From: Bacillota bacterium
GTDB taxonomy: Bacteria; Bacillota; Sulfobacillia; RBS10-35; Bu92
Assembly: GCA_014896375.1 (NCBI GenBank)
Contig: JADBKN010000001.1
Coordinates: forward strand, 274 to 64,273
Direction of reading: 5' to 3'
DNA length: 64,000 nucleotides
In this document: in pieces, positions 4,324 to 60,915 of the stretch
Position numbering within the stretch: the first letter of the stretch is position 1
Layout: each line of letters starts with the position of its first letter
Notes under the pieces: model-generated
What the model was told of the DNA's origin: nothing
Database searches by the model: none
What the model saw: only the letters and a program-made list of their open reading frames with translations
Program-made: the position numbers and the translations under genes

Positions 4324-5049
4324 TCAACCGGACTCACGCAAGGCGCTGTCGAGGAACCGACCCAACATCTCGTGCTCGCGCGGTCCCAGGCCCTGGAGGT
4401 CCTTTAGGAAGCGACCCACCAGATCCACCAATTCCACGCTCAGATTTTGGCTCAGCGTCTGGATCACCGTGCCGGTCACGACTGCAACGAAGATGGAAAG
4501 TCGACTCTCGGCCTCCGGGGCCGCGGCCGCCACAAGGCGCTCGACCAGCTGTCGCGTTCGCCCGCCTACCTGCCGGATGTACACGACCAGCAGGCCGAGG
4601 AGGTGGGCGCAAAAGGCAACCCTCGATTCGAGCCGGGGCAGGTTCTGGAGCAGCGTCTCCACAGCCTCGCCTGGGCGCATCTCTTTCACTCGCACGATCA
4701 GTTCTCCTACCTGAGCCCGTATCGAGTCCCACTCCTCGGGTTCGGGGGGCCGCCGGGTGCCCTCGAACAACTTTTCCGCTTCCGGCGTGGGGCTGAAGAC
4801 GATGACCGACCGTCCGCCCTCGCCGCGGTGCAGGGCGTAGTTCCGCCGCACGTAGCCCATTTGTTCCAGGGTCTTCAACATATCGTACGCCGTCCACTTG
4901 CTGACCCCGAGGACGCGGGCGAGGCTCTCATAATGAACCGGCAGATTTGTTCGCCGGTACAGGTCGACCAATTCTTCGAGGAACTGCTTGCGACGGCCGG
5001 TCAAACCCGTTTTGCCCACCGCGGACCACCCCAAAAAACCAAACTTCAC
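4324..5049 (-). CDS. Winged-helix transcriptional regulator (N-terminal wHTH LARVLGVSKWTAYDMLKTLEQMGYVRR), family not assigned
   Basis: 241 aa ORF with an N-terminal HTH and strong GC3 codon bias. GTG start with no SD, so the start is uncertain (an internal GTG about 10 codons downstream is also possible). Confidence 0.65.
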   Translation of the reverse strand: MKFGFLGWSAVGKTGLTGRRKQFLEELVDLYRRTNLPVHYESLARVLGVSKWTAYDMLKTLEQMGYVRRNYALHRGEGGRSVIVFSPTPEAEKLFEGTRRPPEPEEWDSIRAQVGELIVRVKEMRPGEAVETLLQNLPRLESRVAFCAHLLGLLVVYIRQVGGRTRQLVERLVAAAAPEAESRLSIFVAVVTGTVIQTLSQNLSVELVDLVGRFLKDLQGLGPREHEMLGRFLDSALRESG

Positions 5050-12720: not shown

Positions 12721-13500
12721 ATGCTGGCGCAGAGTGGCGCCCGTAGGGGCGACCTGACCACGATCGTCGGCGCTGGAGCTGAGATCCGCGGCACCGTGGC
12801 CTGTCCGGGCCGTGGCCTGATGCGCATTGAAGGTCGCGTGGAAGGCGAGGTCGTCTCCGCCGGCCACGTGGAGGTGGCGGAGTCGGGTGAAGTCGCGGGC
12901 GTGATCCGCGCGCACGACCTCACCGTGTCTGGCGTGGTGCGGGGCGACGTGCACGTCTCGGGACGCTTGGAGCTGCGCGCCACGGCGCGGCTCTTCGGGC
13001 AGCACATCCGGATGCGGTCGCTGGTCGTGGCGGAGGGTGCCGTCTTCCAGGGCCGGTGCGAGATCGTGCGAGGGGCGGGGGATGCGGGAGCCGCGGAGGC
13101 GGCGGAGGCCGAGGGCGCGGCGGAGGCTGCGGCGGCGGCCGCGGCCGTGGGGGCGGCCGGGGCCGCGGACAGCGAGGATGCAGCGGAGGGTGCCGTGGCC
13201 TTCGGGTGGCCCGATCCAGCGGCGGATGGGGACGCCGCCCTAGCCCTGAACCGGGCGCAGGCCGGGGTGCAAAAAGGCCGGCCATCCGCCTTTGGGCTGG
13301 ACCGCGGCGAGGATGGGGACGCGGAGGCAGACGAGGGGCACGCCGAGCTGGAGGATGCGCCGCTTACCGGTGCGGCTCCGGTGGGCCACGACCGGCCGGC
13401 CGGTGCTCCGCGCGCCGCCCGCGGGGCACGCGCGGACACTCTTCGCGGGCCCGCGGCCGTGGACGGGCGCCGCGTGCTCTGGTCGCGGAAGCGGCCGTGA
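12721..13500 (+). CDS. Bactofilin (CcmA-like polymer-forming protein) with a long Ala/Glu/Asp-rich C-terminal tail
   Basis: Bactofilin beta-helical repeats (GAEIRGTV..GRVEGEV..GHVEV..GEVAGVI..LTVSGVVRGDVHVSGRLEL..). ATG at 12721 after GGAGGGGGTCGGGAG. About 130 aa low-complexity tail. Confidence 0.8.
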   Translation: MLAQSGARRGDLTTIVGAGAEIRGTVACPGRGLMRIEGRVEGEVVSAGHVEVAESGEVAGVIRAHDLTVSGVVRGDVHVSGRLELRATARLFGQHIRMRSLVVAEGAVFQGRCEIVRGAGDAGAAEAAEAEGAAEAAAAAAAVGAAGAADSEDAAEGAVAFGWPDPAADGDAALALNRAQAGVQKGRPSAFGLDRGEDGDAEADEGHAELEDAPLTGAAPVGHDRPAGAPRAARGARADTLRGPAAVDGRRVLWSRKRP

Positions 13501-19316: not shown

Positions 19317-19465
19317 CGGCCTTCTAAGGCGGATGTCGAGCCGGATGTGAGGATCGCCCTGGCTCGGGCGGATCGTGACGGTTCCCGTGCCCCTGGCCGC
19401 CATTGGGCGGAAGGCGTCACGGCGGCGACGGTCGAACATCAACGGCAATCACCAGCCACCGGTGG

Positions 19466-20200
19466 ATGAGGGCGGGGGGAAAGCCGTTGACGACGGCGGA
19501 AGCGCGTGGCGCCGCGGCCGGCGTGGCCGTAGCCGCCCGCGGCGTCTCGAAAGCCTACCACCGAGGCGGGGAGACCATCTGGGCCCTGCGCCGCCTGGAT
19601 CTCGATGTCCCCGAAGGCGCCTTTCTGGCCGTGACCGGCCCTTCCGGCTGCGGCAAGACGACGCTCCTCTCGGTGCTCGGCACGTTGGAGCGGCCCACAT
19701 TCGGCGACGTCTTCATCGACGGGCAACGGGTGACGGGCCTTAGCGAGGACCGGCTGGCCGAGGTGCGCCGTAAGAAGATCGGCTTCGTCTTCCAGACCTT
19801 CTACCTCATCGACTACCTCACGGCACTTGAAAACGTGGCCGTGGCGCTGCGCTTTCAGGGGTTGTCGAAACGGGCGCAGCGGGAGCGGGCGCAGGAGCTT
19901 CTGGAGCTCGTGGGCCTGGGCGACCGCATCCACCACCTGCCGCGGGAACTCTCCGGCGGCCAGCAGCAGCGCGTGGCCATCGCACGGGCGCTGGCGGCGG
20001 AGCCGAAGGTGATCCTCGCCGACGAGCCCACCGGGAACCTGGACCAGTCCTCCACCGCCCAGATCCTGAAAGTCTTCGAAAAGATCCATGCGGCGGGCCA
20101 GACGCTCGTCGTGGTGACGCACGACGCGCGCGTGGCCGACGCGGCCGAGCACCGCCTGCGCCTCCTGGACGGCGCTGTGGTGGACAGCACACTGGAGTAG
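19466..20200 (+). CDS. ABC transporter ATP-binding protein (FtsE/LolD/MacB-ATPase-like)
   Basis: Walker [11 protein letters not shown]-loop, signature [15 protein letters not shown], Walker [13 protein letters not shown]-loop VVVTHD. Start is either ATG at 19466 or TTG at 19487. Confidence 0.85.
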
Positions 20201-20210
20201 GGGGCGGGAC

Positions 20211-21809
20211 GTGCTCTGGGACCTGGGACTTCTCCACGTCCGCCGCCAGCGCCAGCGCCACATGCTGGCCGTCATGAGCGCGGCCGTGGCGATGATCATG
20301 CTGCTCGTCTCCACCGTGCTGTCCCAGGGCACGGTGGCCTGGGTGGCGGGTGCGGAGCGGGCCTTCCTGGGCGGCGATATCCTCGTGCTTCCCCAGGTGC
20401 TGGCCGTGCCGGGCATGCACCCACGAGCGGACGCGCAGTGGCGGTGGACGTCGTGGTCGTGGGACGAGCCGGGTCCGCTCGCCTTCTTCATGCCCTGGAT
20501 CTTCACGCAGGGCGCCGTCGTCCAGCCGGGCGGCTCCGCGCAGCCGGAGAGCGCCGCGCAACCAGGCGGCGCGCCGCTCAAGGCGCTGGAGGCGGAGATC
20601 GCACGCCAGGCGAACGTCCGCGCCATCTACCCCTACTACGCGATGCCGGCCCTCTGGACCGTGAACGGCCGGACGGTGCGCGTGTGGCTGCACGCGCGCG
20701 TCCCGGAACTCGACGCGGCGAGCGGCTGGAACCGCTACCTCTCCGCCGGCCGGCCGCTCTCCGCGGCCGCGGACTTCACGGCGCTCGTCGACGGCTACCG
20801 GCACCGGCTGGAGAGCGACGCGGCGAAGGCGTACGGCTACGACCGCTACAACGGCCGGTGGCTCGTGGCGCCGGACGGGGACCCGACCATCGTGGACTGG
20901 CCCGTGCCGCCTCTGGGCTCCGACATCCGCCTGCAGGTGCCGCGCGCCGGCACGGCCGGCTTCGACTTCACCCGCCTGGAGGACGTGACGCTCACCGTGC
21001 GCGGCCTCTACCAGCTGGAGGACGGCATCTACGACTGGACCACCCACGGCGTCACGAACCAGGGCTACACGCCAGGCATCTACCGCGACCTGAAATGCTC
21101 GCCCTGCATGTGGACGAAGGAACCGGCCGTCTGGTCGACGACGAACATCGAGGTCTCCCTGGCCACGCTGCGCGCCGTGGCGGCGAAAGTCGGCGCGCAC
21201 CTGGAGCCGCAGGCGCTGCTCGTGCAGGTGAAGGATCCGGCGTCTCTCCACCGGACCGTCGACGCGCTGCGGGACGCGCTGCCCGCCACCGTGCTCTCCG
21301 TGCCGGAGATGGCGCAGGAGCACGCGTTGGACTTCATCCCGAGCGTGGCCACGCCCCACGACGATCTGAGCCTCCTGCACCGTGTGGGCATGGATCCGCC
21401 GCCCCTGGACGCGCCGCCGCCCGCGTGGATGCGCTCCACGCTTCTGGGGTTGGGACTGGCCATGACGGCGCTGCTCTTCTTCGCCAACGTCTTCGTCCTT
21501 CTCTACACGCGGCAGAAGGAGTTCGCGACCTTCAGAGTGCTCGGCGCGCGCCGCAGTCAGCTCCTCAGCCTCGTCGCCGCCGAGGTGTTCGCCGTGTCCT
21601 TCGCCGGCGCGGTCTTGGGCGGGCTCGTGATGCTGCCGATGACGTCCTACCAGGTGGGCACGGCGCACGGTTGGACGGCCGTCTTCACGCAATTGGCGTA
21701 CGTGATGGAGCTGGGGTTTGTGGTCTCCCTGGCGAGCGCCACGGCCGGCGTGCTCTTCGGCGTCATCGTCGTCCGCCGCTCGCCGTGGGGGGTGCTGAAG
21801 AGTGACTGA
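20211..21809 (+). CDS. ABC transporter permease, FtsX-like (MacB-type, large extracytoplasmic domain)
   Basis: N-terminal TM, about 400 aa periplasmic domain, C-terminal FtsX 3-TM module ([28 protein letters not shown]). GTG at 20211. Confidence 0.75.
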
Positions 21810-23049
21810 ATGGGAGCTTGCCCTCCGCACCTGGCGGGCCGAGAAGGCGATGAACGTCCTCACCATCCTGCTGACCGCGCTGGGGTTCGCGGTGTATGCG
21901 CTCATGTCGGCCTGGGGTCACCAGGTGCTTTCGCCGGCCGGCATCCGCGCTCAGGCCGTCGCCCTGCCGGCGGACGCTGTCGTCCTGACCCCGCCATGGG
22001 CGCAGGAGGCCGTCCTGCCGGACCTCTCCGTCGAGGCCGTGACGCGCAAGGCCGGCATCGCGGCGACGGTGCGGCAGGCCGCCGCCGCGCTGGCGGTGCC
22101 GGTATTCACGGATGGCGGCACGGTGCGCGCGTGGGGGCTGGACCCCGGCAGCCCGGCAGCTGCGTCGCTGCGCGTTGTCGTGGGTGCGGGCGACCTTTCA
22201 AGCACCTCGGGAGACGTCCTGGTCGCGAAGGATTTCGCTGCAGCGCACGCGCTGGGGGTCGGCTCGCGACTGCGCCTGGCGGCCGTGACCCCCGACCAGC
22301 GCTGGCAGGCGGCCGAATTCCGCGTCGCCGGGATCTACGATCCCAACGGACCTCTGATGGGGTCCGTGGTGCTGTCGAAAGAGGCTCTAAGCCGCCTCAC
22401 GGGCTACACCCGGGACAACGCGCTCTTCCTCTGGGGCGGTCCGGGGTTGCGGGCGGCTCTCCCGGACGCGCTTACCGTTACGCGCGAGCCCGAGTTTCCG
22501 CCGGGCTTCGCGCCCGCCATGACGGTCGATCACTTCCGCGGCGCGCCGATCCCCTTCGGCTTCCTCACGGGCCAGTTCGCTCTGATGCCATCCACGCCGG
22601 CCGCCCAGGTGCAGGCGGTGGTGGCCGCCGCCACCGGCCGCAACCTCACACCGCTGGCGATGGCGCTCTTCGCCCTCATGGGCGTGGCCGTCACGATCCT
22701 CCAGGTGGTGCGCGTGCTCGACGCACAGCGGGTACTGGGGACGTTCAAATCCCTCGGCGAGACGCCGTCGCAGACGATGCGCCGCTACACCATGAGCGGC
22801 GCCTTCAACATGCTTGTGGCCGCCATCCTGGCGCGCGGGCTCTTCGAGCTGGTGGCGGACGTCCTCAATGCGCGGCACGCGAGCCACCTGGCGTTCCACC
22901 CTGGGGTGTATTTCATCTGGCTCTGCGCCGCCGCCCTCTTCGCCTGGTGGGCGGGCAAGGTGCCGGCCATCCTCACCCACACCGCGGCGACGCGCTCGCT
23001 GCTCCTCCGTGCGAACGACTTCGACTGGTTCGCGCTGATCCGGTTTTGA
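21802..23049 (+). CDS. ABC transporter permease, FtsX-like (second copy)
   Basis: GTG at 21802 overlaps the upstream stop (GTGACTGA). Has a C-terminal FtsX-type helix bundle. Confidence 0.7.
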   Translation: MTEWELALRTWRAEKAMNVLTILLTALGFAVYALMSAWGHQVLSPAGIRAQAVALPADAVVLTPPWAQEAVLPDLSVEAVTRKAGIAATVRQAAAALAVPVFTDGGTVRAWGLDPGSPAAASLRVVVGAGDLSSTSGDVLVAKDFAAAHALGVGSRLRLAAVTPDQRWQAAEFRVAGIYDPNGPLMGSVVLSKEALSRLTGYTRDNALFLWGGPGLRAALPDALTVTREPEFPPGFAPAMTVDHFRGAPIPFGFLTGQFALMPSTPAAQVQAVVAAATGRNLTPLAMALFALMGVAVTILQVVRVLDAQRVLGTFKSLGETPSQTMRRYTMSGAFNMLVAAILARGLFELVADVLNARHASHLAFHPGVYFIWLCAAALFAWWAGKVPAILTHTAATRSLLLRANDFDWFALIRF

Positions 23050-23136
23050 GGCGGGAGCGCTGGGGCGGGACCGGTAGGGCAGAGAAGGCGGAAGGATCGG
23101 TCATGCGCCGCAGCGGCGACGGCAAGGCGCATTCCG

Positions 23137-23158
23137 CGCCCTATCGGTATACATAACG
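23137..23158. repeat. ~21-bp motif CCTATCGGTATACATAACGCC, copy 1 of 3 (others at 32879-32900 and 32927-32948), embedded in a ~110-bp element homologous to 32927-33040
   Basis: Direct comparison: CCTATCGGTATACATAACGCC / CCTTATCGGTTGACATAACGCC / CCTTATGGGTTGACATAAGGCC. Downstream blocks are also shared (TGAAGGCGCG..., CTCTGCGGA...GCC). Confidence 0.45.
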
Positions 23159-23435
23159 CCCGGGCGCGTCCGATGAAGGCGCGGAGAGGTAGCGTGGGTT
23201 CGCTCTGCGGACGTTGCGCCACCGCCGGCTAACGCCGGCAATCTCCGCCATCCGATCGCCCTGCGGTGGTGGGGATCCGCCCCCGTCTACCCTCGTCCCG
23301 CGGGTCATACACATCCTGCGGAGACGCACGGTACCGCCGCTTTCCGCCGGCCACCGCGGCGAAAGCGGCGCGCCCCGCGTCCCCCGCGGCCGTGACCACC
23401 ACGGCCGCGCGCACGCAGGGAAGGGCGGGATCTCC

Positions 23436-26171
23436 TTGTCGGACACCCCGGAATGGTATCGCCTCGCTCCGGCCGAAGCGGCCGCGAAACTGGGCACGAG
23501 CCTGGAAGGGGGCCTCTCCACCGCCGAAGCGCGACGCCGCCTCGTCCGCTTCGGCCCGAACGAGCTGCAGGAGCGCCGGCCGCCCTCGCCCCTGGCGATC
23601 CTCCTCGACCAGTTCAAGGACTTCATGGTGCTCGTCCTCGTCGGCGCGACGATCGTCTCCTTCTTCCTCGGCGAGGTGGCGGATTCGATCGCCATCCTCA
23701 TCATCGTGGCGCTGAACGCGATCCTCGGCTTCGTGCAGGAGTACCGCGCGGAGCAGTCGCTGGAGGCGCTCAAGCAGCTGACGGCCCCGGCGGCGCGCGT
23801 GGTGCGCGACGGGCATCCCACGCAGGTGCCCGCCCGGGATGTCGTGCCGGGCGACGTGCTGCTCCTTGAGGCGGGCGACCGCGTGCCGGCGGATGTGCGC
23901 CTCGTGGAGGCGGTCCACCTAGAAGCGGACGAGGCGGCGCTGACGGGGGAGTCCATCCCGGTGCGCAAGCGCGTGGACGCGGACGACCGCCCGGGTCTGC
24001 CGCCCGGGGACCAGCGGGGCATGGCCTTTCAGGGGACGGTCGTGACGCGGGGGCGGGGGCGCGGCGTCGTCGTGGCGACGGGGATGCACACGGAGGTGGG
24101 GCGCATCGCGGGGATGATCCAGGCCGCCGGGCAGCCGGAGACGCCGCTGCAGCGGCGCCTGGAGCAACTGGGGAAGATCCTGGTCCTCGCCTGCCTTCTC
24201 GTGTCGGGGCTGGTGGTGGCCGGGGGCGTGTGGCAGGGGCGGGACCCGTACACGATGTTCTTCACCGGCGTGAGCCTGGCGGTGGCGGCGATTCCCGAAG
24301 GGCTGCCGGCCATCGTGACGATTGCGCTGGCGCTGGGCGTGCAGCGCATGATCCGCGTGAACGCCATCGTGCGGCGCCTGCCGGCCGTGGAGACGTTGGG
24401 CTGCGCCACCGTGATCTGCTCGGACAAGACGGGGACGCTCACCACCAACGCCATGACCGTGCGCGCGCTGTACGCCGACGGCCGCTGGGTGGAGGTCACG
24501 GGGCGCGGGTACCGGCCGGAAGGCGAGCTGCTCGTCGAGGGGAAGGCGATCCGCCCGGCGCCGCGGTCCGCGCTGGGCCTCGCCCTCGTCTGCGGAGCGC
24601 TCTGCAACAACGCTTCCCTGGAGGAGGCGCGCCGGGGGCGGGAGCGCACCTGGGAGGTGCGCGGCGATCCCACCGAGGCCGCACTGCTTGTCGCGGCGGC
24701 GAAGGCAGGGCTCTCTCCCTCGCGGCTCGGCGAACTCCATCCACGCCTCGCCGAGGTGCCGTTCGAATCCGAACGGCGGCGCATGTCGGTGGTGGTGCGG
24801 GGCGAGGAGGGGGCGGTCGTCTTCGTGAAGGGCGCACCCGACGACGTGCTCGACCTCTGCACCCACGTGCGGATGGGGGAACGCCTCCTGCCCATGGACG
24901 CGCACCTGAGGCGGGAGCTGAGGGCGGTGCACGAGGAGATGGCGGGACGCGCCATGCGCGTGCTGGGGCTGGCCATGCGCTCCTGGTCCGGCGCGGTGAG
25001 GGAGGACCTGCGCGCCGAGGAGGTGGAGCGCGACCTCGTCTTTCTCGGCTTCGCCGGCATGATCGACCCGCCCCGGGCGGAGGTGCGGGACGCCATCGCC
25101 GAGTGCCACCGCGCGGGCCTGCGCGCCGTGATGATCACCGGAGACCACGCGCGCACGGCGGAGGCGATCGCCCGCGAGCTGCACATGCTGCCCCCGGGCG
25201 GGCGCGTCCTGACCGGCGCCCAGCTCGACGCCATGGACGATGCCGAGCTCGCCGCGGCGGTGGCCGACACGTATGTTTTCGCCCGCGTGTCGCCGGCGCA
25301 CAAACTGCGTATCGTCAGGGCCTTCCAGGCGCGCGGCGAGGTGGTGGCGATGACGGGCGACGGCGTGAACGACGCCCCGGCCGTCAAAGAGGCCGACATC
25401 GGCGTAGCCATGGGGCGCAGCGGGACCGACGTGACCAAAGAGGCGTCCGACATGATCCTCACCGACGACAACTTCGCCACCATCGTGGCGGCCATCCGCG
25501 AGGGGCGCGCGATCTACGACAACATCCGCAAATTCATCCGCTACCTCCTCTCGTGCAACACGGGCGAGATCCTGCTCATGGTCCTGGCCACACTCCTTGA
25601 GACGCCCTTGCCGCTCCTGCCGATCCAGATGCTGCTCGTGAACCTGGTCACGGACGGCCTGCCGGCCCTGGCGCTCGGGGTCGACCCTCCGGACCGCGAC
25701 GTGATGTGCCGCCGGCCGCGCGACCCGCGCGAGGGCGTCTTCGCGCGCGGTTTGGCGCGGCTCATCGCCGTGCGCGGCGTGATCATCGGCGTGGCCAGCC
25801 TCTACGTGTTCCTCTTGGCGCTGAGCGTGACGGGCCACGTGGACCTCGCGCGGACGATGGCCATGGCGACCCTCTGCGTCTCCCAGCTCTTCCACTCCTT
25901 CGACGCGCGCTCGGAGTACAAGAGCCTCTGGCAGGTCGGGATCTTCACGAACCCGGCGCTGATCGCGGCGGCGCTCGTCTCTTTCGCGGCGCTTTGCGCG
26001 GTGATCTACCTCCCGGTCCTGCAACCGGCCTTCCACAGCGTGCCGCTGGGCTGGGGGGAGTGGGTGATCGTCGGCGGCACCTCCCTGGCGGGGGCGCTGC
26101 TCGCCGGATGCTACAACCTCGCGCGCGCCATCTGGCACCGGCGCGCTGTGGTGCTGCGCCAGCGGGGCTGA
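23436..26171 (+). CDS. P-type ATPase, type IIA (SERCA-like cation / Ca2+ transporter)
   Basis: TGES, DKTGTLT (phosphorylation site CSDKTGTLTTN), TGDHARTA, GDGVNDAPA motifs, about 10 TM. TTG start at 23436 (SDTPEWYRL...) after GGAAGGG. ATG-less N-terminus otherwise. Confidence 0.9.
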   Translation: MSDTPEWYRLAPAEAAAKLGTSLEGGLSTAEARRRLVRFGPNELQERRPPSPLAILLDQFKDFMVLVLVGATIVSFFLGEVADSIAILIIVALNAILGFVQEYRAEQSLEALKQLTAPAARVVRDGHPTQVPARDVVPGDVLLLEAGDRVPADVRLVEAVHLEADEAALTGESIPVRKRVDADDRPGLPPGDQRGMAFQGTVVTRGRGRGVVVATGMHTEVGRIAGMIQAAGQPETPLQRRLEQLGKILVLACLLVSGLVVAGGVWQGRDPYTMFFTGVSLAVAAIPEGLPAIVTIALALGVQRMIRVNAIVRRLPAVETLGCATVICSDKTGTLTTNAMTVRALYADGRWVEVTGRGYRPEGELLVEGKAIRPAPRSALGLALVCGALCNNASLEEARRGRERTWEVRGDPTEAALLVAAAKAGLSPSRLGELHPRLAEVPFESERRRMSVVVRGEEGAVVFVKGAPDDVLDLCTHVRMGERLLPMDAHLRRELRAVHEEMAGRAMRVLGLAMRSWSGAVREDLRAEEVERDLVFLGFAGMIDPPRAEVRDAIAECHRAGLRAVMITGDHARTAEAIARELHMLPPGGRVLTGAQLDAMDDAELAAAVADTYVFARVSPAHKLRIVRAFQARGEVVAMTGDGVNDAPAVKEADIGVAMGRSGTDVTKEASDMILTDDNFATIVAAIREGRAIYDNIRKFIRYLLSCNTGEILLMVLATLLETPLPLLPIQMLLVNLVTDGLPALALGVDPPDRDVMCRRPRDPREGVFARGLARLIAVRGVIIGVASLYVFLLALSVTGHVDLARTMAMATLCVSQLFHSFDARSEYKSLWQVGIFTNPALIAAALVSFAALCAVIYLPVLQPAFHSVPLGWGEWVIVGGTSLAGALLAGCYNLARAIWHRRAVVLRQRG

Positions 26172-26200
26172 GGGGCGCCGCGCGCCGCGCCGGGCGCCCG

Positions 26201-27142
26201 ATGTACAATGGGGGCATGCCGAGCATCGACGTGCCCGCAGGAACCGCGCATTACGTCACCGGCGCCCTGGACCCGGCCGCGGCGGGCGCGCAGGGCCCCG
26301 TCCTCGTGGCCCTACACGGAGCCGGGGCGTCCCACCGCGCGTTCGGCCACATGGCGTATTCCCTGGGGCAGGCATGGCCCGTCATCGTGCCGGATCTGCC
26401 CGGCCACGGCCGTTCCTCGCCGTTACCCGGAGAGGTGACGATTCCCGCTCTGGCCGGATGGGTCGAGGACTTTTGGACCGCCCTCTGCGCCTCCTGGGGA
26501 CGGCGACCTCCGCTCGTGCTCCTCGGCCACTCGATGGGCGGCGCCGTGGCCATCGAGTACGGGCTGACGCGGCAGGAGGGCCTGCTGGCGCCCGCCGGCC
26601 TGGTGCTGGTAGCCACGGGCGGGCGGTTGCGCGTGCGGCCGGATTTCCTCGCAGCGCTGGCGGAGGGGCGGTATCCGGAGGAGCTGCTGGAGGCGGTGGC
26701 GGGGCTGGGCGCGGCGGGCACGGGCGCAGGGCCGGCGGGCGCGGGTACGGGTGGGGGCGCGGCGCCCGCGGCCGCGGGCGCGGCGGAGGCCTTCGCCGCG
26801 CGCGTGGTCGCGCGCCCTGGCGGCGCGGGCGTCGACGCGCCGCCGGAGGTGACCTACCGTGACCTTCTCGCCTGCGACGCCTTCGACCGCCTGGCCGACC
26901 TGCCCCGCCTCCGCGTGCCCACGCTCGTCATCCAGGGGGACCGTGACCTTATGACGCCGCTTAAGTACGGGCAGCGACTGGCGGAAGCCATTCCCGGCGC
27001 GCGCCTCGTCGTGGTGGAGGAGGCGGGCCACCTTGTGCACGCGCAGCGTCCCGGCCCGGTGAACCGCGCCGTGCGGGCGTTTCTTGAGGAACTGGCGGCC
27101 GGTCTCGCGCCGGACGGCACGCAGCCGGGCGTATCCGGCTGA
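26201..27142 (+). CDS. Alpha/beta-fold hydrolase
   Basis: GHSMGG nucleophile elbow, with Asp and His in the C-terminal part (QGDRDLM...AGHLVH). Gly/Ala-rich insert in the middle. ATG at 26201 or 26216. A TACAAT hexamer overlaps the start region. Confidence 0.75.
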   Translation: MYNGGMPSIDVPAGTAHYVTGALDPAAAGAQGPVLVALHGAGASHRAFGHMAYSLGQAWPVIVPDLPGHGRSSPLPGEVTIPALAGWVEDFWTALCASWGRRPPLVLLGHSMGGAVAIEYGLTRQEGLLAPAGLVLVATGGRLRVRPDFLAALAEGRYPEELLEAVAGLGAAGTGAGPAGAGTGGGAAPAAAGAAEAFAARVVARPGGAGVDAPPEVTYRDLLACDAFDRLADLPRLRVPTLVIQGDRDLMTPLKYGQRLAEAIPGARLVVVEEAGHLVHAQRPGPVNRAVRAFLEELAAGLAPDGTQPGVSG

Positions 27143-27196
27143 CCGCGCGCAGAAGCCCGGCCGGCACCGGCCGGAAGCGGATGGAGGGAGCCCCGG

Positions 27197-28072
27197 GTGG
27201 ATCTGGCGTTCATCAAGATGGAGGGCGCGGGCAACGACTACGTCTACGTCGACGGCGTCGGGCGGCCGCTGCCGGACCTCGACTGGCCGGAGGTGGCGCG
27301 GCGCGTCTCCGACCGCCGCTTCGGCGTGGGCAGTGACGGCCTCATTCTCATCGCCCGCGGGGAACGCGCGCCGTTCCGCATGATCATGTTCAATGCGGAC
27401 GGCAGCCGTGGGGAGATGTGCGGCAACGGCATGCGCTGCCTGGCCTTCTACGTGCACGCCGCCGGCTATACGGCGGCGCCCGAGTTCGAGGTGGAGACGG
27501 ACGGCGGGCCCGTGCGCGTGGCCATCCTGGAGAGCGGCCGCCGCCGCGGCCGCGTGCGCGTGGACATGGGCCCGCCGCGTCTGGAGCCGGAGCGCATCCC
27601 CACCACGCTGCCCGGTACGCCGGTCGTGGGCGCGCCTCTGGAGGTGGACGGCCGCACGGTGCGCGTCGCGGCGGTGTCGATGGGGAACCCTCATTGCGTC
27701 GTGTTCTTGGACGAAAACCATTTCGGCGCGCCGCTGGACGGACTGGACCTTGAGGCCATCGGCCCGCTCTTTGAGCACCACCCCGCCTTCCCGCAGCGCG
27801 TGAACACGGAGTTCGTCGAGGTCGAGGGGCCTGACCGCCTTCGCATGCGCGTCTGGGAACGCGGCTCCGGGGAGACCTGGGCCTGCGGCACGGGCGCCTG
27901 CGCGGCGCTCGTGGCGGCGGCACTGACGGGGCGGAGCGGCCGCCGCGCGCGGGTGGGCGTGCGCGGCGGGGAGCTGGAGGTGGAGTGGGCCGCAGGCGGC
28001 CACGTGTTCCTGAGCGGCCCGGCCGTCGAAGTGTTCCGCGGCACGTTCCCTGTGGAGGAGGAAAGGGTTTGA
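27197..28072 (+). CDS. dapF: Diaminopimelate epimerase
   Basis: FIKMEGAGNDYVYVD N-terminus, both catalytic Cys (MCGNGMRC..., CGTGACAA). GTG at 27197 after GGAGGGA. Confidence 0.9.
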   Translation: MDLAFIKMEGAGNDYVYVDGVGRPLPDLDWPEVARRVSDRRFGVGSDGLILIARGERAPFRMIMFNADGSRGEMCGNGMRCLAFYVHAAGYTAAPEFEVETDGGPVRVAILESGRRRGRVRVDMGPPRLEPERIPTTLPGTPVVGAPLEVDGRTVRVAAVSMGNPHCVVFLDENHFGAPLDGLDLEAIGPLFEHHPAFPQRVNTEFVEVEGPDRLRMRVWERGSGETWACGTGACAALVAAALTGRSGRRARVGVRGGELEVEWAAGGHVFLSGPAVEVFRGTFPVEEERV

Positions 28073-29241
28073 CGCGATTCGCGCGCGCCGAGCGGTTGCA
28101 GAAGATCCCGCCGTATCTCTTCGCGGAGCTCGACCGGCGCATCGCCGCGAAGCGGGCGGCCGGCGTGGACGTCATCAGCCTGGGTGTGGGAGATCCCGAC
28201 CGGCCCACCCCGCCGCATATCGTGGAGCGCCTCGCCCGGGAGGCGGCACGGCCCGAGTGGCACCGCTACCCCTCCTATGTCGGCGCACCGGAGTTCCGCC
28301 GCGCCGCCGCACGCTGGCTGGAGCGGAACTACGGCGTGCAGGTGGATCCGGACCGTGAGGTGGTGGCGCTCATCGGCTCCAAGGAGGGGCTGGCGCACCT
28401 CTGCTGGGCGCTCGTCAACCCCGGCGACGCGGTGCTGGTGCCGGATCCCGGCTACCCGGTGTACCGGACGCAAGCCGTCTTCGCGGGTGGTGAGCCGGTG
28501 GAGCTGCCGCTGCGCGCGGAGCGCGGCTTCCTTCCCGACCTGGCGGCCGTGCCGGAGACGGTGGCGAGGCGGGCGAGGCTGCTTTTCCTCAACTACCCGA
28601 ACAATCCGACCGGGGCCACGGCGACGGCGGCGGACTTCGCGGAGTGGGTCGCCTTCGCGCGGCGCCACGGCATCGCCTTCGCGCACGATGCCGCGTACGT
28701 GGACCTCGCCCTGGACGGCGGCCGCGCGCCCATCGCTCTCCAGGCGCCCGGCGCGAAGGACGTGACGATCGAGTTCTTCTCGCTGTCCAAGCCGTACAAC
28801 ATGACGGGCTGGCGCCTGGGCTTCGCCGCCGGCAACGCGGAGCTCGTGCAGGCTCTCGCGACGGTGAAGGAGAATACGGACAGCGGCCAGTTCACCGCCC
28901 TCCAGATGGCTGGCGTGGAAGCGCTCGAGAACACTCCGGAGGCCTTCCTGGAAGAGATGCGCGCCCTCTACCGGCGTCGTCTGGAGAAGGCCGCGGCGGC
29001 GCTGAGGGAGGCCGGCTTCGATGCACGCCGGCCGCGCGCCACATTCTACCTCTGGGTGCCGGTGCCGGCGGGGTACACGGCGGAGCAGGTGGCGGAGCGC
29101 ATGCTGGAGGAGGCGGGCGTGGTGGTGAGCCCCGGCACGGCCTACGGGCGGCACGGAGCGGGCTACATCCGCCTCTCCCTCACACTGCCGGACGAGCGTC
29201 TGGATGAGGCGCTGGACCGCATCCGCCGGCTCAAGTTCTGA
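28069..29241 (+). CDS. dapL: LL-diaminopimelate aminotransferase (DapL-type class I aminotransferase)
   Basis: PLP-lysine motif FSLSKPYNMTGWRLGF. TTG start overlaps the dapF stop (TTGA), after GGAGGAGG. Operon context with dapF. Confidence 0.85.
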   Translation: MTRFARAERLQKIPPYLFAELDRRIAAKRAAGVDVISLGVGDPDRPTPPHIVERLAREAARPEWHRYPSYVGAPEFRRAAARWLERNYGVQVDPDREVVALIGSKEGLAHLCWALVNPGDAVLVPDPGYPVYRTQAVFAGGEPVELPLRAERGFLPDLAAVPETVARRARLLFLNYPNNPTGATATAADFAEWVAFARRHGIAFAHDAAYVDLALDGGRAPIALQAPGAKDVTIEFFSLSKPYNMTGWRLGFAAGNAELVQALATVKENTDSGQFTALQMAGVEALENTPEAFLEEMRALYRRRLEKAAAALREAGFDARRPRATFYLWVPVPAGYTAEQVAERMLEEAGVVVSPGTAYGRHGAGYIRLSLTLPDERLDEALDRIRRLKF

Positions 29242-29246
29242 ACGCG

Positions 29247-29687
29247 ATGGAAAGCCTCAGGGACGAAGCCTTCCGCCTGGATGAGGCCGTGCGCGCGGCC
29301 CTGCGCGCGGCGCTCGGGGAGCGCCTCGTGGCTGCGGCCGTGTGGGGAAGCCGCGCCACGGGAAGCGCGCGCGCCGATTCCGACGTGAATGTCGTCGCCC
29401 TGGCGGCCCCCCTGCCCGAGGAGGCCGAGGAGCGGCGCGCGCTCGTGCGCGCGGCGCGGCGCCGCTTTCTCTGGGATGCCGGGCTGCGGCTCTCGCTCAC
29501 GCTGCTCACGCCGGAGGAGCTGGCGCTGCGCGCGGGCTCTTCGGATCCCCTCGTGCTCGGCCTCGCCCAGGGCCACCGCGTGGTGGAGGGCGCCGCGGCA
29601 CCCTTTGCCGAGGCGCTGGGAGCCGTGGCGGGCGCCTACCGCTGGGACGAGGAGCTCAGAGCATGGACCTGGCGCGCGCCTTCCTAG
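29247..29687 (+). CDS. Minimal nucleotidyltransferase (MNT, MntA-like antitoxin of a HEPN/MNT pair)
   Basis: GSRATGSARADSDVNV = GS-x9-DxD polymerase-beta-superfamily motif. 146 aa. Overlaps the downstream HEPN gene by 25 nt. Confidence 0.75.
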   Translation: MESLRDEAFRLDEAVRAALRAALGERLVAAAVWGSRATGSARADSDVNVVALAAPLPEEAEERRALVRAARRRFLWDAGLRLSLTLLTPEELALRAGSSDPLVLGLAQGHRVVEGAAAPFAEALGAVAGAYRWDEELRAWTWRAPS

Positions 29688-30271
29688 CCACGGCGCGGGA
29701 TGACCTGCGCGCCGCCCGGGTTCTCCTCGCGGAGGAGCTCTGGGCCGCGTCCTGCTTCTTCAGCCAGCAGGCGGCGGAGAAGGCGGCGAAGGCCTGGCTC
29801 TGCGCCGCCGGCGTGGCGCCGCCGCGCTCGCATTACGTGAGCGCGGTGCTGTCGCGGCTGCTGCGGGGGCGCGGGGAGACCGGCGCCGGGGCGGGGGGCG
29901 CCGGGGCGGGTGGCGCTGGGGTGGCGGGCGCGGGCGGCGCCCCGGGGGCGGTTGGCGCGGCCGTGGTGGGCGAGGCGGGGGCGGCCGCCGGGGCTGCGGG
30001 CGCGGCGCGCGCGGCGAGGAGAGCGGGCGCGGGCGCGGCCGGCGCGGAGGAGAGAGCTGGGCCGGCGCGCGGGGCCCGCGCGGCGGAGCGGCGCCTGGTC
30101 GAGCTCCTCGACGAGCTGGAGGAGTACGTCACCGAGGCCCGCTACCCGGAGCGCGGCGCGGGGGGCTACCTCTCGCCGTACGGCCGCCTGGGGCGGCGAC
30201 GCGCCGAGGAGGCGACCGCCCTCGCCGAGGAGGCGGTCCGCTTCGTGGAGGAGAATCTCCTTGAGAGGTGA
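29663..30271 (+). CDS. HEPN-domain protein (HepT-like toxin partner) with a ~75 aa Gly/Ala-rich low-complexity insertion
   Basis: N-terminal HEPN helices (ARDDLRAARVLLAEELWAASCFFSQQAAEKAAKAWL..PRSHYVSAVLSRL) and a C-terminal helix (EYVTEARYPER). The insert is encoded by the GGCGCCGGGGCGGGG-type tandem repeats at 29875-30060. Confidence 0.7.
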   Translation: MDLARAFLATARDDLRAARVLLAEELWAASCFFSQQAAEKAAKAWLCAAGVAPPRSHYVSAVLSRLLRGRGETGAGAGGAGAGGAGVAGAGGAPGAVGAAVVGEAGAAAGAAGAARAARRAGAGAAGAEERAGPARGARAAERRLVELLDELEEYVTEARYPERGAGGYLSPYGRLGRRRAEEATALAEEAVRFVEENLLER

Positions 30272-30277
30272 CGCGCT

Positions 30278-31069
30278 GTGAAACAGTACCTCGACCTCTG
30301 CCGCCACATTCTGGAGCACGGCGTGGAGACGCGGGACCGCACGGGCGTCGGCACGCTGAGCGTCTTCGGCTACCAGATGCGCTTCGACCTCGCCGAGGGG
30401 TTTCCGCTCCTCACGACGAAGCGGCTCTTCGTCAAGGGCATCATCCACGAGCTCCTCTGGTTCATCCGCGGCGACACGAACGTGAGGTACCTGCAAGAAC
30501 ACGGCGTGCACATCTGGGACCCCTGGGCGGACGAGAACGGCGACCTCGGCCCCGTCTACGGCAAGCAATGGCGCCGCTGGGCGGGTCCGGACGGTCCCGT
30601 CGACCAGCTCCGCAACGTCATCGAGGAGATCCGCCGCGACCCGCACTCCCGGAGGCTCGTCGTCACGGCCTGGAACCCGGCGGAGGTGCCGTCGATGGCG
30701 CTGCCGCCCTGCCATACGCTCTTCCAGTTCTACGTGCGCAACGGCCGGCTGAGCTGCATGCTCTACCAGCGGAGTGCCGACGTGTTCCTGGGCCTGCCCT
30801 TCAACATCGCCAGCTACGCCCTGCTGACGATGATGGTGGCGCAGGTGACGGGATACCAGCCGGGAGAGTTCATCCACACGCTGGGCGACGCCCACATCTA
30901 CCTCAACCACTTCGACCAGGTCCGGCTGCAGCTCACGCGCGAGCCGCGCCCGCTCCCGCAGATGCGCCTCAATCCGGCGGTGCGCGACCTCTTCGCCTTC
31001 CGCTACGAGGACTTCGAGCTCGTGGGCTACGACCCGCACCCGCCCATCCGCGGCGAGGTGGCCGTTTGA
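30278..31069 (+). CDS. thyA: Thymidylate synthase
   Basis: Full ThyA signature ([15 protein letters not shown]..., PCH active site [13 protein letters not shown]). GTG at 30278. Confidence 0.95.
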
Positions 31070-31584
31070 TCACCATCGTGGCCGCCGTGGACGAGGACGG
31101 CGTGATCGGCGCGGGCGGGCGCCTTCCCTGGCACCTGCCGGCCGACCTGCGCCGCTTTCGGGAGCTCACGGAGGGGCACGTGGTGGTGATGGGGCGGAAG
31201 ACCTACGAATCGATCGGGCGGCCGCTGCCGCGGCGCACGAACATCGTGCTGACGCGGAATCCCCGCTACCCGGCGCCCGGCTGCCTCGTCCTCACCGATC
31301 CTGCGGACGTGGCCCCCTTCGCCGCGCGGGATGAGGTGTTCGTGATCGGCGGGCGCGAGATCTTCGACCTCTTTTTGCCCGTGGCCGACCGTATCCACCT
31401 CACCGTGGTCCACGGGCGCTTCCCCGGGGACACGCGCTTTCCTCTTGAGGCGCTGCGCGCCTTCCGTCGCACGCGCCGCGAGCGGCACGCGCGCGACGAG
31501 CGGAATCCCTACGACTACACCTTCGAGCAATACGACCGACCCGCTGAGCCATACGACCCACCCGCAGCCGGGACAGGGAGATGA
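31066..31584 (+). CDS. folA: Dihydrofolate reductase
   Basis: [15 protein letters not shown]...[16 protein letters not shown]...[15 protein letters not shown] start overlaps the thyA stop (TTGA). Classic thyA-folA pair. Confidence 0.9.
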
Positions 31585-31590
31585 ACGCGC

Positions 31591-32715
31591 TTGACACCGA
31601 TCGAACCGACCGTTGTGATGCAGCGTCTCCAGGCGCTGGCGGGGCGCGACCTGTACGTGCACCTGGAGACGACGACCGGCGCCTACACGAAGGGTGCCTT
31701 CGGGGCGTTTCTGCGCAATGGGCGCATCCGCTTTCTGGACGGGCGCGTTACGGGGCGCGGCCCGTTCCGCGTGGGGCTGCGCCTCGCGGACGGCTGGCTC
31801 TACGCCGAGGGCTTGACGCATTGGGACGTCGACGAGGACGGGCGGCTGCTGCTCGCGGGCCACGATGACGAGGGCCGGCTCACGGTGGCGCTGGAGCTCA
31901 GCCCGGAGCCCTTCCCCGCGGCGTGGGGCGCGGGGCCGGCGCTGGGCGTGGGGGCGGCGCAGGGCGCGAGGGCGTTGGAGCCCGGCGCACACGGCGCTGG
32001 CGGCGCGGAGGCGTTGGAGCGGCGCGTGCCCGGCGCTGGCGGCGCGGAGGCGGCGCTTGTCCGCGGCCCCCTCGTCGTCGTCCTCGCCCACCCGGACGAT
32101 GAGTCCTTCGCGTGCGGCGGCGTCATGGCGCTGCACGCGGCGGCGGGCGCGCCGGTGACCTACGTCTGCGCCACGCGCGGCGAGATGGGCCGCAACATGG
32201 GCCGGCCTCCCCTCGCCACGCGGGAGACGCTGGCATCCCTTCGGGAGCGCGAGCTCGTCGCCGCCTGCGCGGCGCTGGGCGTGCACGACGTGCGCTTTTT
32301 GGGGCTCTGGGACAAGACTGTGGAGTTCGTCGACCGCGAGGCGTTGGTGGAGGCCGTGCGCGCAATCCTGCTGGAGATGGAGCCGGTGCGTCTCATCACG
32401 TTCCATCCCCGCTTCGGCGGGCACCCGGATCACGAGGCGGTGGGGGCGGCAGCTCTTGAGGCCGTGCGCCGGCTGCCGGCAGAGCGGCGGCCGGTGGTCT
32501 GGTGCCCCATCGTGCCGGCGGCCGAGGGCGATGCCGGCCTGCCGGTGGAGACGGTGGACATCCGTGCCGTCGGTGAGCGGAAGATGGCGGCGCTCCGGGC
32601 GCACCGCTCCCAGACGGCGAACTGGGAGGCGCGCGCCGAGGCGGACCCGGAACTGCGCGCGCGTATGGAGAGGATGCGTTCGGAAGAGCGGTTCTGGGTG
32701 TATGCGGTGGAGTGA
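31591..32715 (+). CDS. Fusion protein: YojF-like (DUF1806) N-terminal domain plus PIG-L / LmbE-family N-acetylglucosaminyl deacetylase (BshB2-like)
   Basis: The N-terminal ~110 aa (LYVHLETTTGAYTKGAFGAFLRNGRIRFLDGRVTGRGPFRVGL) matches YojF as recalled. The C-terminal domain has the AHPDDE / PIG-L motif. The two are linked by a duplicated Gly/Ala segment (GAHGAGGAEALERR / VPGAGGAEAALVRG). In Bacillus yojF and bshB2 are adjacent but separate genes. Confidence 0.65.
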   Translation: MTPIEPTVVMQRLQALAGRDLYVHLETTTGAYTKGAFGAFLRNGRIRFLDGRVTGRGPFRVGLRLADGWLYAEGLTHWDVDEDGRLLLAGHDDEGRLTVALELSPEPFPAAWGAGPALGVGAAQGARALEPGAHGAGGAEALERRVPGAGGAEAALVRGPLVVVLAHPDDESFACGGVMALHAAAGAPVTYVCATRGEMGRNMGRPPLATRETLASLRERELVAACAALGVHDVRFLGLWDKTVEFVDREALVEAVRAILLEMEPVRLITFHPRFGGHPDHEAVGAAALEAVRRLPAERRPVVWCPIVPAAEGDAGLPVETVDIRAVGERKMAALRAHRSQTANWEARAEADPELRARMERMRSEERFWVYAVE

Positions 32716-32878
32716 GCGGCGAGGGAGGGGCGGCGCGGCGCCGGGCGGTGGTGTGGCGGCAACACCTGCCGCTCGGGGGGCGCGCCATGCGGTGCCGGCC
32801 GCCGGCAGGCGGGCGTGGGGCGCGGGGTACGCGGTGCGGGGGCTGCCGTGGCTTGGCGGGTGTGAGGCGTGGAGTGCA

Positions 32879-32948
32879 CCTTATCGGTTGACATAACGCC
32901 AAATGGTGGGGTCGTAAGGTCGATGGGACGCCTTATGGGTTGACATAA
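32879..32948. repeat. Two tandem copies of the TATCGGTTGACATAACGCC-like motif (the second is an inverted repeat CCTTATG-n6-CATAAGG), 48 bp apart
   Basis: Direct read of the 32716-33300 intergenic region; see the feature at 23137. Confidence 0.45.
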
Positions 32949-33119
32949 GGCCGGCGACCCGGGGGTGACGCCCAAGTGAAGGCGCGACTTGCGCCTTACC
33001 CTCTGCGGAAACGCCGTTGAGCCGACGGTGGAGGCGCAAAGAGTGCCTAATTCCTCGCAGTGGTGGGTGCGGTAGAGGTGCCGGGTACGTCCAGGGTATC
33101 GCGCCGTAGAGAGACGCGG

Positions 33120-33148
33120 GCCGTGACCGCGCCTCTTTTTTCCTTTGC
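33120..33148 (+). terminator. Hairpin plus T6 tract (possible terminator of an unannotated short transcript)
   Basis: GCGGG-ccgtgac-CGCGCC followed by TCTTTTTTCC, about 430 nt downstream of the nearest upstream gene. Confidence 0.3.
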
Positions 33149-33240
33149 TTGCTCGCTTTCCCGCTCGGTTTCCCTCGCTGAGTGAGACCTCTCTTGGAAG
33201 CGGATCCGCCACCCGCGGTGCTCTCCGATGCGTGGCGGCA

Positions 33241-33296
33241 TTGACCTCACCCGAACATGTGTTCTATACTGCAATCGAACACACGTTCGACGGAGG
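33241..33296 (+). promoter_or_regulatory. SOS promoter: TTGACC-N18-TATACT with two Gram-positive-type LexA (Cheo/DinR) boxes
   Basis: Box 1 CGAACATGTGTTCT at 33253-33266 overlaps the spacer. Box 2 CGAACACACGTTCG at 33283-33296 lies just downstream of the -10. Both fit GAAC-N4-GTTC. Confidence 0.65.
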
Positions 33297-33303
33297 TTGC
33301 CCC

Positions 33304-34641
33304 ATGGGACAGGCGGAACAGGCGCCCAAGGAGCGGGTCGGGTACTTCGCGCTCGCCGGCTTTTTCGCGCAGGTGGAGCGGGTCGAACGCGGCGGAGAGG
33401 CGCCGGTGGTCGTCATCCGGGACGGCCGCGTCCTCGATCGCGACGCTGCCGCGAAGGAGGCCGGCGTGCGCTTGGGGCAGGCGGAAGTCGAGGCCCGCCA
33501 AGCCTGTCCCCGTGCCCGGTTCATTCCTTATGTGGCCGCTCGCTACCGCGCCGCGGCCGATCAGGTCATGGCGGCGGCGTACGCCCTTTCGCCCGTGCTG
33601 GAACCGGATGGCGAGGCGGCGGGTTGGTTCGAGCTCGGCCGCAATCAGAGCCCGGAAGAAGTCGTGGAGAGCCTGTCCGCCGCTCTGATCCCACGGTGGG
33701 GAATCCGCCTGCTGACCGGTTTCGGCCCCAACCCGTGGACGGCGCAGTTGGCCGCGCTCCGCTTGGCTTCGCCGGCCAACCCCTTTCCGGTGGTGGCGGC
33801 CGCCTCGGCCGCAGACGCCCTGGCGCCGCTGCCTGTGGCCGTACTGGATCGCGTCCTGCCAGGCATCTCACCGCGGTTGCAAGCACTGGGACTCCACACC
33901 CTGGGGCAGGTGGCGGCCGTGCCGCCTCCGGAACTGCGGCGTGCCTTGGGGGAGCCGGCGCTGGCCGCTCAAGGCTACAGCCGCGGCGAGGACGGCCGCC
34001 GCGTGCGGCCGCTCTGGCCGCGCGCGGCCGTCGTAGAGGCGGTGGACTTCTCAAGCCCCCTCTCCAACCTGGAAACCGTCTCCCACACGCTGGACCGCCT
34101 GGCCGCCGCGCTCGCCCGCAGGCTGAGGGACAAGGGCCAGGCCGGGCGTCAGGTGGCGCTGGAGGTTCTCACGGAGGACGGGCGGGCGCGCCGCGCGGAG
34201 CGCCGCTTCACCCGGCCGCGGGCAGATGCGGCCGTGGCCCAGGTCCTTCACTTTCTCTGGGCGGGAGAGCTGTGGCCGGAACTGGCGCGCGGCTCGCGGG
34301 GGGCGCTGCGGATCGTCCGGCTGGCGGCGTCTGTCTCGGACCTCTGCGAGCGACCGTGGGCCCAGGTCGGGCTATGGCAGGAGCCCTCCGCGGCGGAACG
34401 CACCCTGAGTGCGGGAGGGAGAGTGGCGGCCGAGCGGGAGGCTGCGCGGCCGGAGGGACTGCCTTCGGTGGACCGGCGCAAGCTCCCCCAGGTGGTGCAG
34501 GAGCTCCGTGCGCGCTTCCCTTCCGCGCATGTGGGCTTCGGTGCCCCGGAGGCGGCCGACTGGCGCGAGGAGCGGCTGGCGTTCTGGGATCCCCTCCGCT
34601 GGACGACGCAGTCGCACGGTGCCGGCCGGTCCTCTCGATGA
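33304..34641 (+). CDS. imuB: ImuB-like catalytically inactive Y-family DNA polymerase
   Basis: Aligns with the DinB N-terminus, but the catalytic DMD and SLDE acidic residues are replaced (YFALAG; EPDGEAAGWFEL). ATG at 33304 after GGAGG. LexA boxes lie upstream, with dnaE2 downstream. Confidence 0.75.
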   Translation: MGQAEQAPKERVGYFALAGFFAQVERVERGGEAPVVVIRDGRVLDRDAAAKEAGVRLGQAEVEARQACPRARFIPYVAARYRAAADQVMAAAYALSPVLEPDGEAAGWFELGRNQSPEEVVESLSAALIPRWGIRLLTGFGPNPWTAQLAALRLASPANPFPVVAAASAADALAPLPVAVLDRVLPGISPRLQALGLHTLGQVAAVPPPELRRALGEPALAAQGYSRGEDGRRVRPLWPRAAVVEAVDFSSPLSNLETVSHTLDRLAAALARRLRDKGQAGRQVALEVLTEDGRARRAERRFTRPRADAAVAQVLHFLWAGELWPELARGSRGALRIVRLAASVSDLCERPWAQVGLWQEPSAAERTLSAGGRVAAEREAARPEGLPSVDRRKLPQVVQELRARFPSAHVGFGAPEAADWREERLAFWDPLRWTTQSHGAGRSSR

Positions 34642-60654: not shown

Positions 60655-60915
60655 CGTACAATGGAGCAAGATAGAGCGCGCCCCCCCGGAGCGCACCCTG
60701 CTGTGTGCGTGACGGAGCCGATGTTTGTTTTGAACCAACACCAAAACAAAGGGAGCCTGGACTCCGCCCGGAGCGGGCAGGCCGCGGAGCACGGCGGAAG
60801 CCTTCAACCGGCGGGAGGGCACCCACCTGCCAGGGGCAGGTTTGAAACCATCGGCGCACGGCACGGTGGGGTTGGATTCACGCGAACGCGCCCGCGAGGG
60901 CGCGTTTCGTGCTAC
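60655..60915 (+). ncRNA. Candidate 6S RNA (ssrS / bsrA-like) or other structured sRNA downstream of aspS
   Basis: TACAAT -10 at about 60654. 5'/3' complementarity (5' CCGATG with 3' CATCGG; 5' GAGCGCGCCC with 3' GGGCGCG). AT-rich hairpin TTGTTTTG-n10-CAAAACAA. Terminal hairpin ACGCGCCC-gcga-GGGCGCGT plus TTTCGTG. In B. subtilis the 6S-1 RNA gene lies directly downstream of aspS. Confidence 0.35.

Follow-up and report, generated by a model that had tools for sequence, protein, structure and literature searches.

A short, partly dyad-symmetric intergenic box, present three times in 64 kb of a high-GC Bacillota genome, as a putative protein-binding site

A box of 21-22 nt, CC(T)TATSGGTWKACATAASGCC, occurs three times in the 64-kb stretch of DNA analysed here (the window), always on the + strand and always between genes. 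What is observed is a box at three positions, with sharp boundaries, with no -10 element and with no RNA fold common to the copies. The best reading is that this is a short cis-acting, partly dyad-symmetric DNA element and a putative protein-binding site, to which we assign a probability of about 0.35. We infer both that a protein binds the box and that the downstream units are regulated through this binding. The copies are these:

23140-23160, + strand: box copy 1, CCTATCGGTATACATAACGCC
32879-32900, + strand: box copy 2, CCTTATCGGTTGACATAACGCC
32931-32952, + strand: box copy 3, CCTTATGGGTTGACATAAGGCC

The GC content of the window is 72% and the box is AT-rich against that background, so that three near-identical copies are far beyond chance. 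The 19-mer TATCGGTTGACATAACGCC, allowed up to 3 mismatches, has exactly 3 matches on the + strand of the window, at 23142, 32882 and 32934, with an expectation of 0.00 from 100 dinucleotide shuffles, and a fourth copy was not found in the window even at up to 5 mismatches. Pairwise identity among the copies is 86-91% over 22 nt. Three copies are too few for a reliable model of the box, and the count covers the 64-kb window. All three have the same orientation as the units downstream of them. Copy 1 lies 91 nt past the stop codon of a MacB/FtsX permease gene and 276 nt ahead of the TTG start of a P-type ATPase gene. Copy 3 starts 52 bp after copy 2 and the centres of the two are likewise 52 bp apart, about five helical turns. 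The preliminary description of this DNA had recognized three core copies and had placed them upstream of the ATPase and of the SOS promoter of imuB, and on both counts it was right. Its coordinates for copy 2 (32879-32900) were also right, but those given for copy 1 (23137-23158) and copy 3 (32927-32948) were off by 3-4 nt. The resemblance of the core to a TTGACA -35 hexamer, which it had pointed out, is exact in copies 2 and 3; copy 1, however, has TATACA instead (4/6 positions) and is one T shorter.

How far does the similarity reach? The repeated element had been described as about 110 bp long, but when the two complete spacers are aligned locally (Smith-Waterman), the alignment covers no more than 25 bp, around the core. 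When the core is removed, the best alignment of the flanks is a bare 10-mer, TGAAGGCGCG, with a score of 10 that was reached by 293 of 300 shuffles. This word follows the core by 14 nt at copy 1 and by 25 nt at copy 3. A second word, CTCTGCGGA, had contributed to the proposed alignment of the flanks of copies 1 and 3; its spacing differs between the two regions (29 nt vs 24 nt), and the alignment does not hold up. Both words are at chance level for DNA of 72% GC, and at that composition the GGCGC/GCGCC hairpins that had been cited in support of the element are uninformative. When the three copies are set in register without gaps, 5 of the 56 columns downstream are identical, which is about background, while upstream the figure is 9 of 45 against about 4.5 expected. 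An AGG fixed 14 nt ahead of TAT in all three copies forms a weak upstream extension and is the sole addition to the core. BLAST of both spacers against the window returned GC-rich noise plus the box and nothing else. The repeated unit is thus about 22 bp long, perhaps up to about 36 bp, with sharp boundaries, and a length of about 110 bp is excluded. On proper alignment there is no similarity past the 21-bp core, so that of the claim that this is a duplicated structured element rather than a chance hexamer match, the repeat of about 22 bp stands; the structured element does not, as the similarity ends at the core and the folds differ. A 52-bp tandem duplication as the source of copies 2 and 3 was rejected as well, the 30 nt after each core being unrelated. 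Because identity is about 90% inside the box and at background outside it, and because uniform neutral decay leaves no sharp edge, the sequence comparison points to constraint on the 22 bp themselves and against neutral decay of a duplicated segment.

Two other repeats in the window are of a different kind. A GC-rich short-period repeat with a 9-nt periodicity lies near 13.1 kb (13074-13201), and GC-rich units of 30-36 nt (GGGGCGAAGGCAGGGGCG-like) lie near 35.8 kb (35769-35884), just inside the start of the dnaE2 ORF.

The surroundings of copy 1 are given below; genes were identified by GC3-guided ORF calling and Pfam, and the leader by folding against shuffles.

19403-20200, + strand: ABC ATPase
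20211-23049, + strand: two FtsX/MacB permeases
23161-23435, + strand: strongly structured 275-nt leader of the ATPase gene, directly 3' of copy 1
23436-26171, + strand: YloB-like calcium-type P-type ATPase (Pfam: Cation_ATPase_N, E1-E2_ATPase, Cation_ATPase_C)
26216-27142, + strand: alpha/beta hydrolase
Between the hydrolase and yojF-bshB2, + strand: dapF, a class I/II aminotransferase, a nucleotidyltransferase-like/HEPN pair, then thyA and folA

Logan contigs from run SRR24392716 agree with the window at every base, and the gene call in one of them confirms the start of the ATPase gene. The leader has a minimum free energy of -158.7 kcal/mol, with z values of -3.8 and -4.2; for comparison, 20 control segments of the same length have a mean z of -0.55 (sd 1.0, minimum -2.5). 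Its terminal helix pairs 23271-23282 with 23424-23435 and adjoins the TTG start. The 275 nt have no match in Rfam. On the basis of these folding calculations we regard this segment as a candidate cis-regulatory leader.

No close orthologue of the ATPase gene or of the permease gene upstream of it was retrieved, and the box is absent upstream of four ATPase homologues (about 61-65% identity). In one homologous locus, L057, which also has ABC/MacB genes upstream, TATCCGTATACA at about 2955-2966 matches copy 1 at 11 of 12 positions, 45 nt before the start codon. This match was reached by 10 of 500 shuffles and was one of 12 comparisons, and it is not significant. It sits inside a GGAG...CTCC palindrome beside the ribosome-binding site. 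Two further loci, L058 (about 1765-1790) and L059 (about 2860-2885), have in common a leader hairpin that lies some 60 nt ahead of the ATPase starts and shows a compensatory change (GAGTAAGGTTGG-N7-CCAACC vs GAGTATGGTTGT-N7-ACAACC), followed by a conserved CAGAGGTGAA ribosome-binding site. In this clade of ATPases the hairpin may represent a conserved element of the leader.

Copies 2 and 3 lie in a different setting, a long non-coding stretch ahead of an SOS operon:

31591-32715, + strand: DUF1806(yojF)-PIG-L(bshB2) fusion in one 374-aa ORF (Pfam)
32716-33235: non-coding stretch of about 520 bp from the bshB2 stop to the imuB SOS promoter, holding copies 2 and 3 and a terminator
33108-33141, + strand: intrinsic terminator, AGAGAGA-CGCGG-gccgtga-CCGCG-CCTC plus TTTTTT
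33241-33306, + strand: imuB SOS promoter, TTGACC at 33241, an 18-nt spacer and TATACT at 33265
33304-34641, + strand: imuB, then DUF6504 and dnaE2

On the + strand, the 64-kb window has a single T6 run, the one in this terminator, which starts about 150 nt past copies 2 and 3. From its position, transcription through the spacer would stop before the LexA-controlled promoter. The SOS promoter is outside the repeat, with the terminator between them; its LexA boxes are at 33252-33264 and 33276-33289, and the imuB ATG is at 33304. The LexA (SOS) box, CGAAC-N4-GTTCG, is absent from the repeated box, the true LexA boxes being 300 bp downstream, past the terminator. After the terminator, a pyrimidine-rich stretch (33143-33182, + strand) contains a tandem 12-mer, CTCGCTTTCCCG / CTCGGTTTCCCT.

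The lineage is poorly sampled, with four non-self ImuB homologues at E<1e-20. The promoter of imuB-DUF6504-dnaE2 is conserved in the four lineages examined (window, 33241-33306; L026, 484-551; L027, 567-637; L028, 345-400), each time with a LexA box between the -35 and -10 elements and a second one downstream. In L026, the closest available relative (80% ImuB identity), the coding flanks align well, and between the stop codon of bshB2 and the SOS promoter there are 47 nt vs about 520 nt in the window. These 47 nt have no significant similarity to the extra DNA of the window, and they contain neither the box nor a terminator. The box is absent from all the imuB loci L026-L029, of which the last three are more distant. 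Since the SOS promoter is conserved in relatives and the box is not, the box did not belong to the ancestral control region of imuB. We also searched 185,579 species-representative genomes, the JGI metagenomes and IMG/VR, a set that does not include the source MAG, with a degenerate pattern to which all three copies conform. The scans returned 23 single matches among the genomes, 25 among the metagenomes and 1 in IMG/VR, and the genome and metagenome matches inspected were all in unrelated contigs of 22-60% GC, at chance level. Among the relatives and collections scanned, the box is therefore not conserved beyond this organism.

The features that suggest a site for a protein are internal to the box. 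It consists of half-sites, CSTTATS, separated by 6 bp and related by a partial dyad symmetry. TAT is kept in 6 of 6 half-sites and TTAT in 5 of 6. The arrangement TTAT-N8-ATAA, with at most one mismatch, has 4 sites in 64 kb vs 0.28 expected, and three of the four are the boxes. The inverted repeat that had been noted in copy 3 is real and extends to 8 bp rather than 7 (GCCTTATG-N6-CATAAGGC, 32930-32951). In both its length of about 20 bp and its CSTTATS-N6-SATAASG partial inverted half-sites, the box is like generic winged-helix or TetR/MarR-type operators with a 7-6-7 dyad, and like them it is intergenic and upstream of units, with two sites (copies 2 and 3, at 52 bp) in helical phase. It differs from such operators in that the symmetry is imperfect in two of the three copies, the full 8-bp dyad being present in copy 3 only, and in that conservation is no lower in the 6-bp spacer, GGTWKA, than in the arms, something that a simple dimer site would not call for.

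We propose that a sequence-specific DNA-binding protein of this lineage may recognize the box as an operator or activator site. One box stands directly ahead of the long, structured leader of the ATPase gene. The other two, about five helical turns apart and so on the same face of the helix, head a short, terminator-bounded non-coding stretch that is present in this lineage and missing from the closest available relative. The box may also overlap an unconventional promoter. The nearest helix-turn-helix gene, and the sole one nearby, is on the minus strand at 4324-5049, 18 kb away. To our knowledge, no operator consensus among those for LexA, CtsR, HrcA/CIRCE, Fur/PerR/Zur, cre, TnrA, BirA, PhoP, ArsR/SmtB, CopY, CsoR, PadR, FNR and IscR fits all three copies, and neither do the parS, dif, Ter and IHF sites that we know of. 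For the XerD arm of the Firmicute dif site, which we take to be TTATGTAAACT, the minus strand of the box (TTATGTCAACC or TTATGTATACC) matches at 9 of 11 positions. The box nevertheless differs from dif: no copy has a XerC arm 6 bp away, there are three copies and not one, and the TTAT and ATAA arms point outward, not inward. Recognition by a protein is the best remaining explanation because the RNA, simple-promoter and mobile-element readings discussed below each fail a defining test. A shared operator, among the roles suggested in the preliminary description, is the sole survivor and would be the most viable.

The main rival to a binding site is a promoter read by a non-housekeeping sigma factor. 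Here the box would be a promoter core (a -35-type element together with its flanks, or else the site that an alternative sigma factor recognizes) and would drive the ATPase leader and a terminated transcript of about 190 nt. We consider this possible, if unlikely. The hexamer TTGACA is perfect in copies 2 and 3, a closed helical domain begins directly 3' of the box in both downstream regions, one of which terminates strongly, and the 386-nt spacer upstream of the ATPase contains no other recognizable promoter. Against this, and unlike a sigma-70 -35 element, the box has no -10 partner: neither a promoter scan nor a relaxed scan found a sigma-70 -10 element 15-19 nt after TTGACA/TATACA on either strand in any copy. 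The same scans do detect the true SOS promoter at 33241. TANNNT occurs at 15-19 nt in none of the copies, the nearest being TAAGGT at 21 nt in copy 2 only, and copy 1 has TATACA. The conserved 8 nt on each side of the hexamer are also unlike sigma-70 recognition. The promoter role that had been put forward thus failed for want of a -10 element on either strand. As for other sigma factors, we know of no consensus among those for sigma E, K, G, F, D, H, B and 54 that fits all three copies. The regulation of yloB-type ATPases is itself unresolved, and promoters of yloB genes elsewhere are sporulation-specific and have no recognizable canonical sigma site (PMC12999246), which makes an alternative-sigma promoter somewhat more plausible.

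Two explanations give the box no specific regulatory role, and we regard each as distinctly unlikely. The first takes it for a REP-type repeat, short, dispersed and confined to the species, that spreads in intergenic DNA. Like REP/BIME sequences the box is short, intergenic and species-specific, with one palindromic copy. It occurs about once per 21 kb and only between genes, neither the relatives nor any other genome scanned has it, lineage-specific DNA surrounds copies 2 and 3, and copy 3 is a palindrome capable of forming a hairpin. However, the palindrome does not extend to copies 1 and 2, in which 4-5 of 7 positions pair and the fold is a different one, all copies have a single orientation, and neither a RAYT nor a transposase was found among the window proteins scanned with Pfam. 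Moreover, what is extra at the imuB locus amounts to about 470 bp of unique DNA rather than an insertion of 22 bp. The suggestion of a REP/MITE-like repeat consequently fails on the palindrome in copies 1 and 2, on terminal inverted repeats, which were not found in or around 32690-33260, and on unit-length repeats. A MITE would be a unit of about 100-500 bp; the similarity extends over only about 25 bp and there is no target-site duplication. A CRISPR mini-array, with repeats of at least 23 nt at constant spacing, was rejected too: the repeat is 22 nt, the spacings are 52 and 63 bp, the latter leading to a third unit that is 64% identical, and Pfam detected no cas domains in the window. Nor did the 525-bp stretch prove to be mobile DNA by origin, as it has no plasmid or phage relatives; BLAST against plasmid and phage collections returned nothing beyond one 43-nt GC-rich match.

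In the second, the box is a functionless remnant of small local duplications or of templated repair in fast-changing spacers. The bshB2-imuB spacer is clearly rearranged relative to the closest relative, and a 19-nt near-repeat of the 3' end of bshB2 (32696-32714 vs 32858-32876, 79% identical) lies just before copy 2, which suggests local duplication or rearrangement in the spacer. The lack of conservation beyond this organism would also be expected of a remnant. On the other hand, the remaining copy is 9.7 kb away and has the same sharp boundaries, while neutral duplicates are expected to carry similar flanks.

A further scenario assigns the box a wider role. It would be recognized by a regulator or alternative sigma factor particular to this lineage, through which the YloB-type ATPase is controlled together with a newly acquired, short, terminator-bounded gene (for a small RNA or a micro-peptide) just upstream of the SOS mutasome operon. 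We hold this to be quite improbable. If true, it would open a first way, through a cis element, into how yloB-type ATPases are regulated.

The box might instead act as RNA: it could be a hairpin or processing signal when transcription reads through it, or it could make up the 5' portion of a leader or small RNA. Any such read-through would have every copy on its sense strand, copy 3 folds into a stem of 8 bp, and the regions downstream are structured, the ATPase leader with a z of -3.8. Yet the three copies with 15-nt flanks adopt three different minimum free energy folds (z of -0.43, -0.36 and -1.23), no better than shuffles, the two positions at which copies 2 and 3 differ do not form a pair, and the downstream regions cannot be aligned. 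Rfam searches at E up to 10 over 22900-23600 and 32650-33300 returned noise only. With no family matches and no fold common to the copies, the proposed role as a small structured RNA or leader is very improbable. The sole gathering-threshold Rfam match in the window is 6S RNA (RF00013, 85 bits), at 60692-60876 on the + strand, downstream of aspS.

Coding readings were rejected. On the minus strand each copy includes an ATG and encodes [R/P]YV[N/Y][R/P]-stop, in ORFs that have neither a ribosome-binding site nor a Pfam match, and this common C-terminal peptide is an automatic result of the common DNA. On the + strand, small ORFs (MKAR... at both loci) have different frames across the common words.

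Finally, the idea that the copies are direct-repeat attachment sites around a 9.7-kb mobile island is effectively refuted: 23161-32878 is flanked by co-oriented copies, but the segment consists of housekeeping genes (ATPase, hydrolase, dapF, aminotransferase, thyA, folA, yojF-bshB2) with no integrase, the adjacency of bshB2 and imuB is conserved in the relative, and GC content is unchanged across the segment.

Overall, judging from the DNA itself, the finding is ordinary in kind, and a docking site for a DNA-binding protein is the most likely explanation. As it stands it means very little, the box being short, intergenic and private to one species, an uncultured high-GC Bacillota represented by a MAG. 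It is modestly useful in drawing attention to two features. One is the unusually structured leader, without annotation, that it heads in front of the YloB-like calcium ATPase gene; the other is the lineage-specific non-coding insertion by which a strong terminator comes to lie between a housekeeping operon and the LexA-controlled imuB-dnaE2 mutasome operon.
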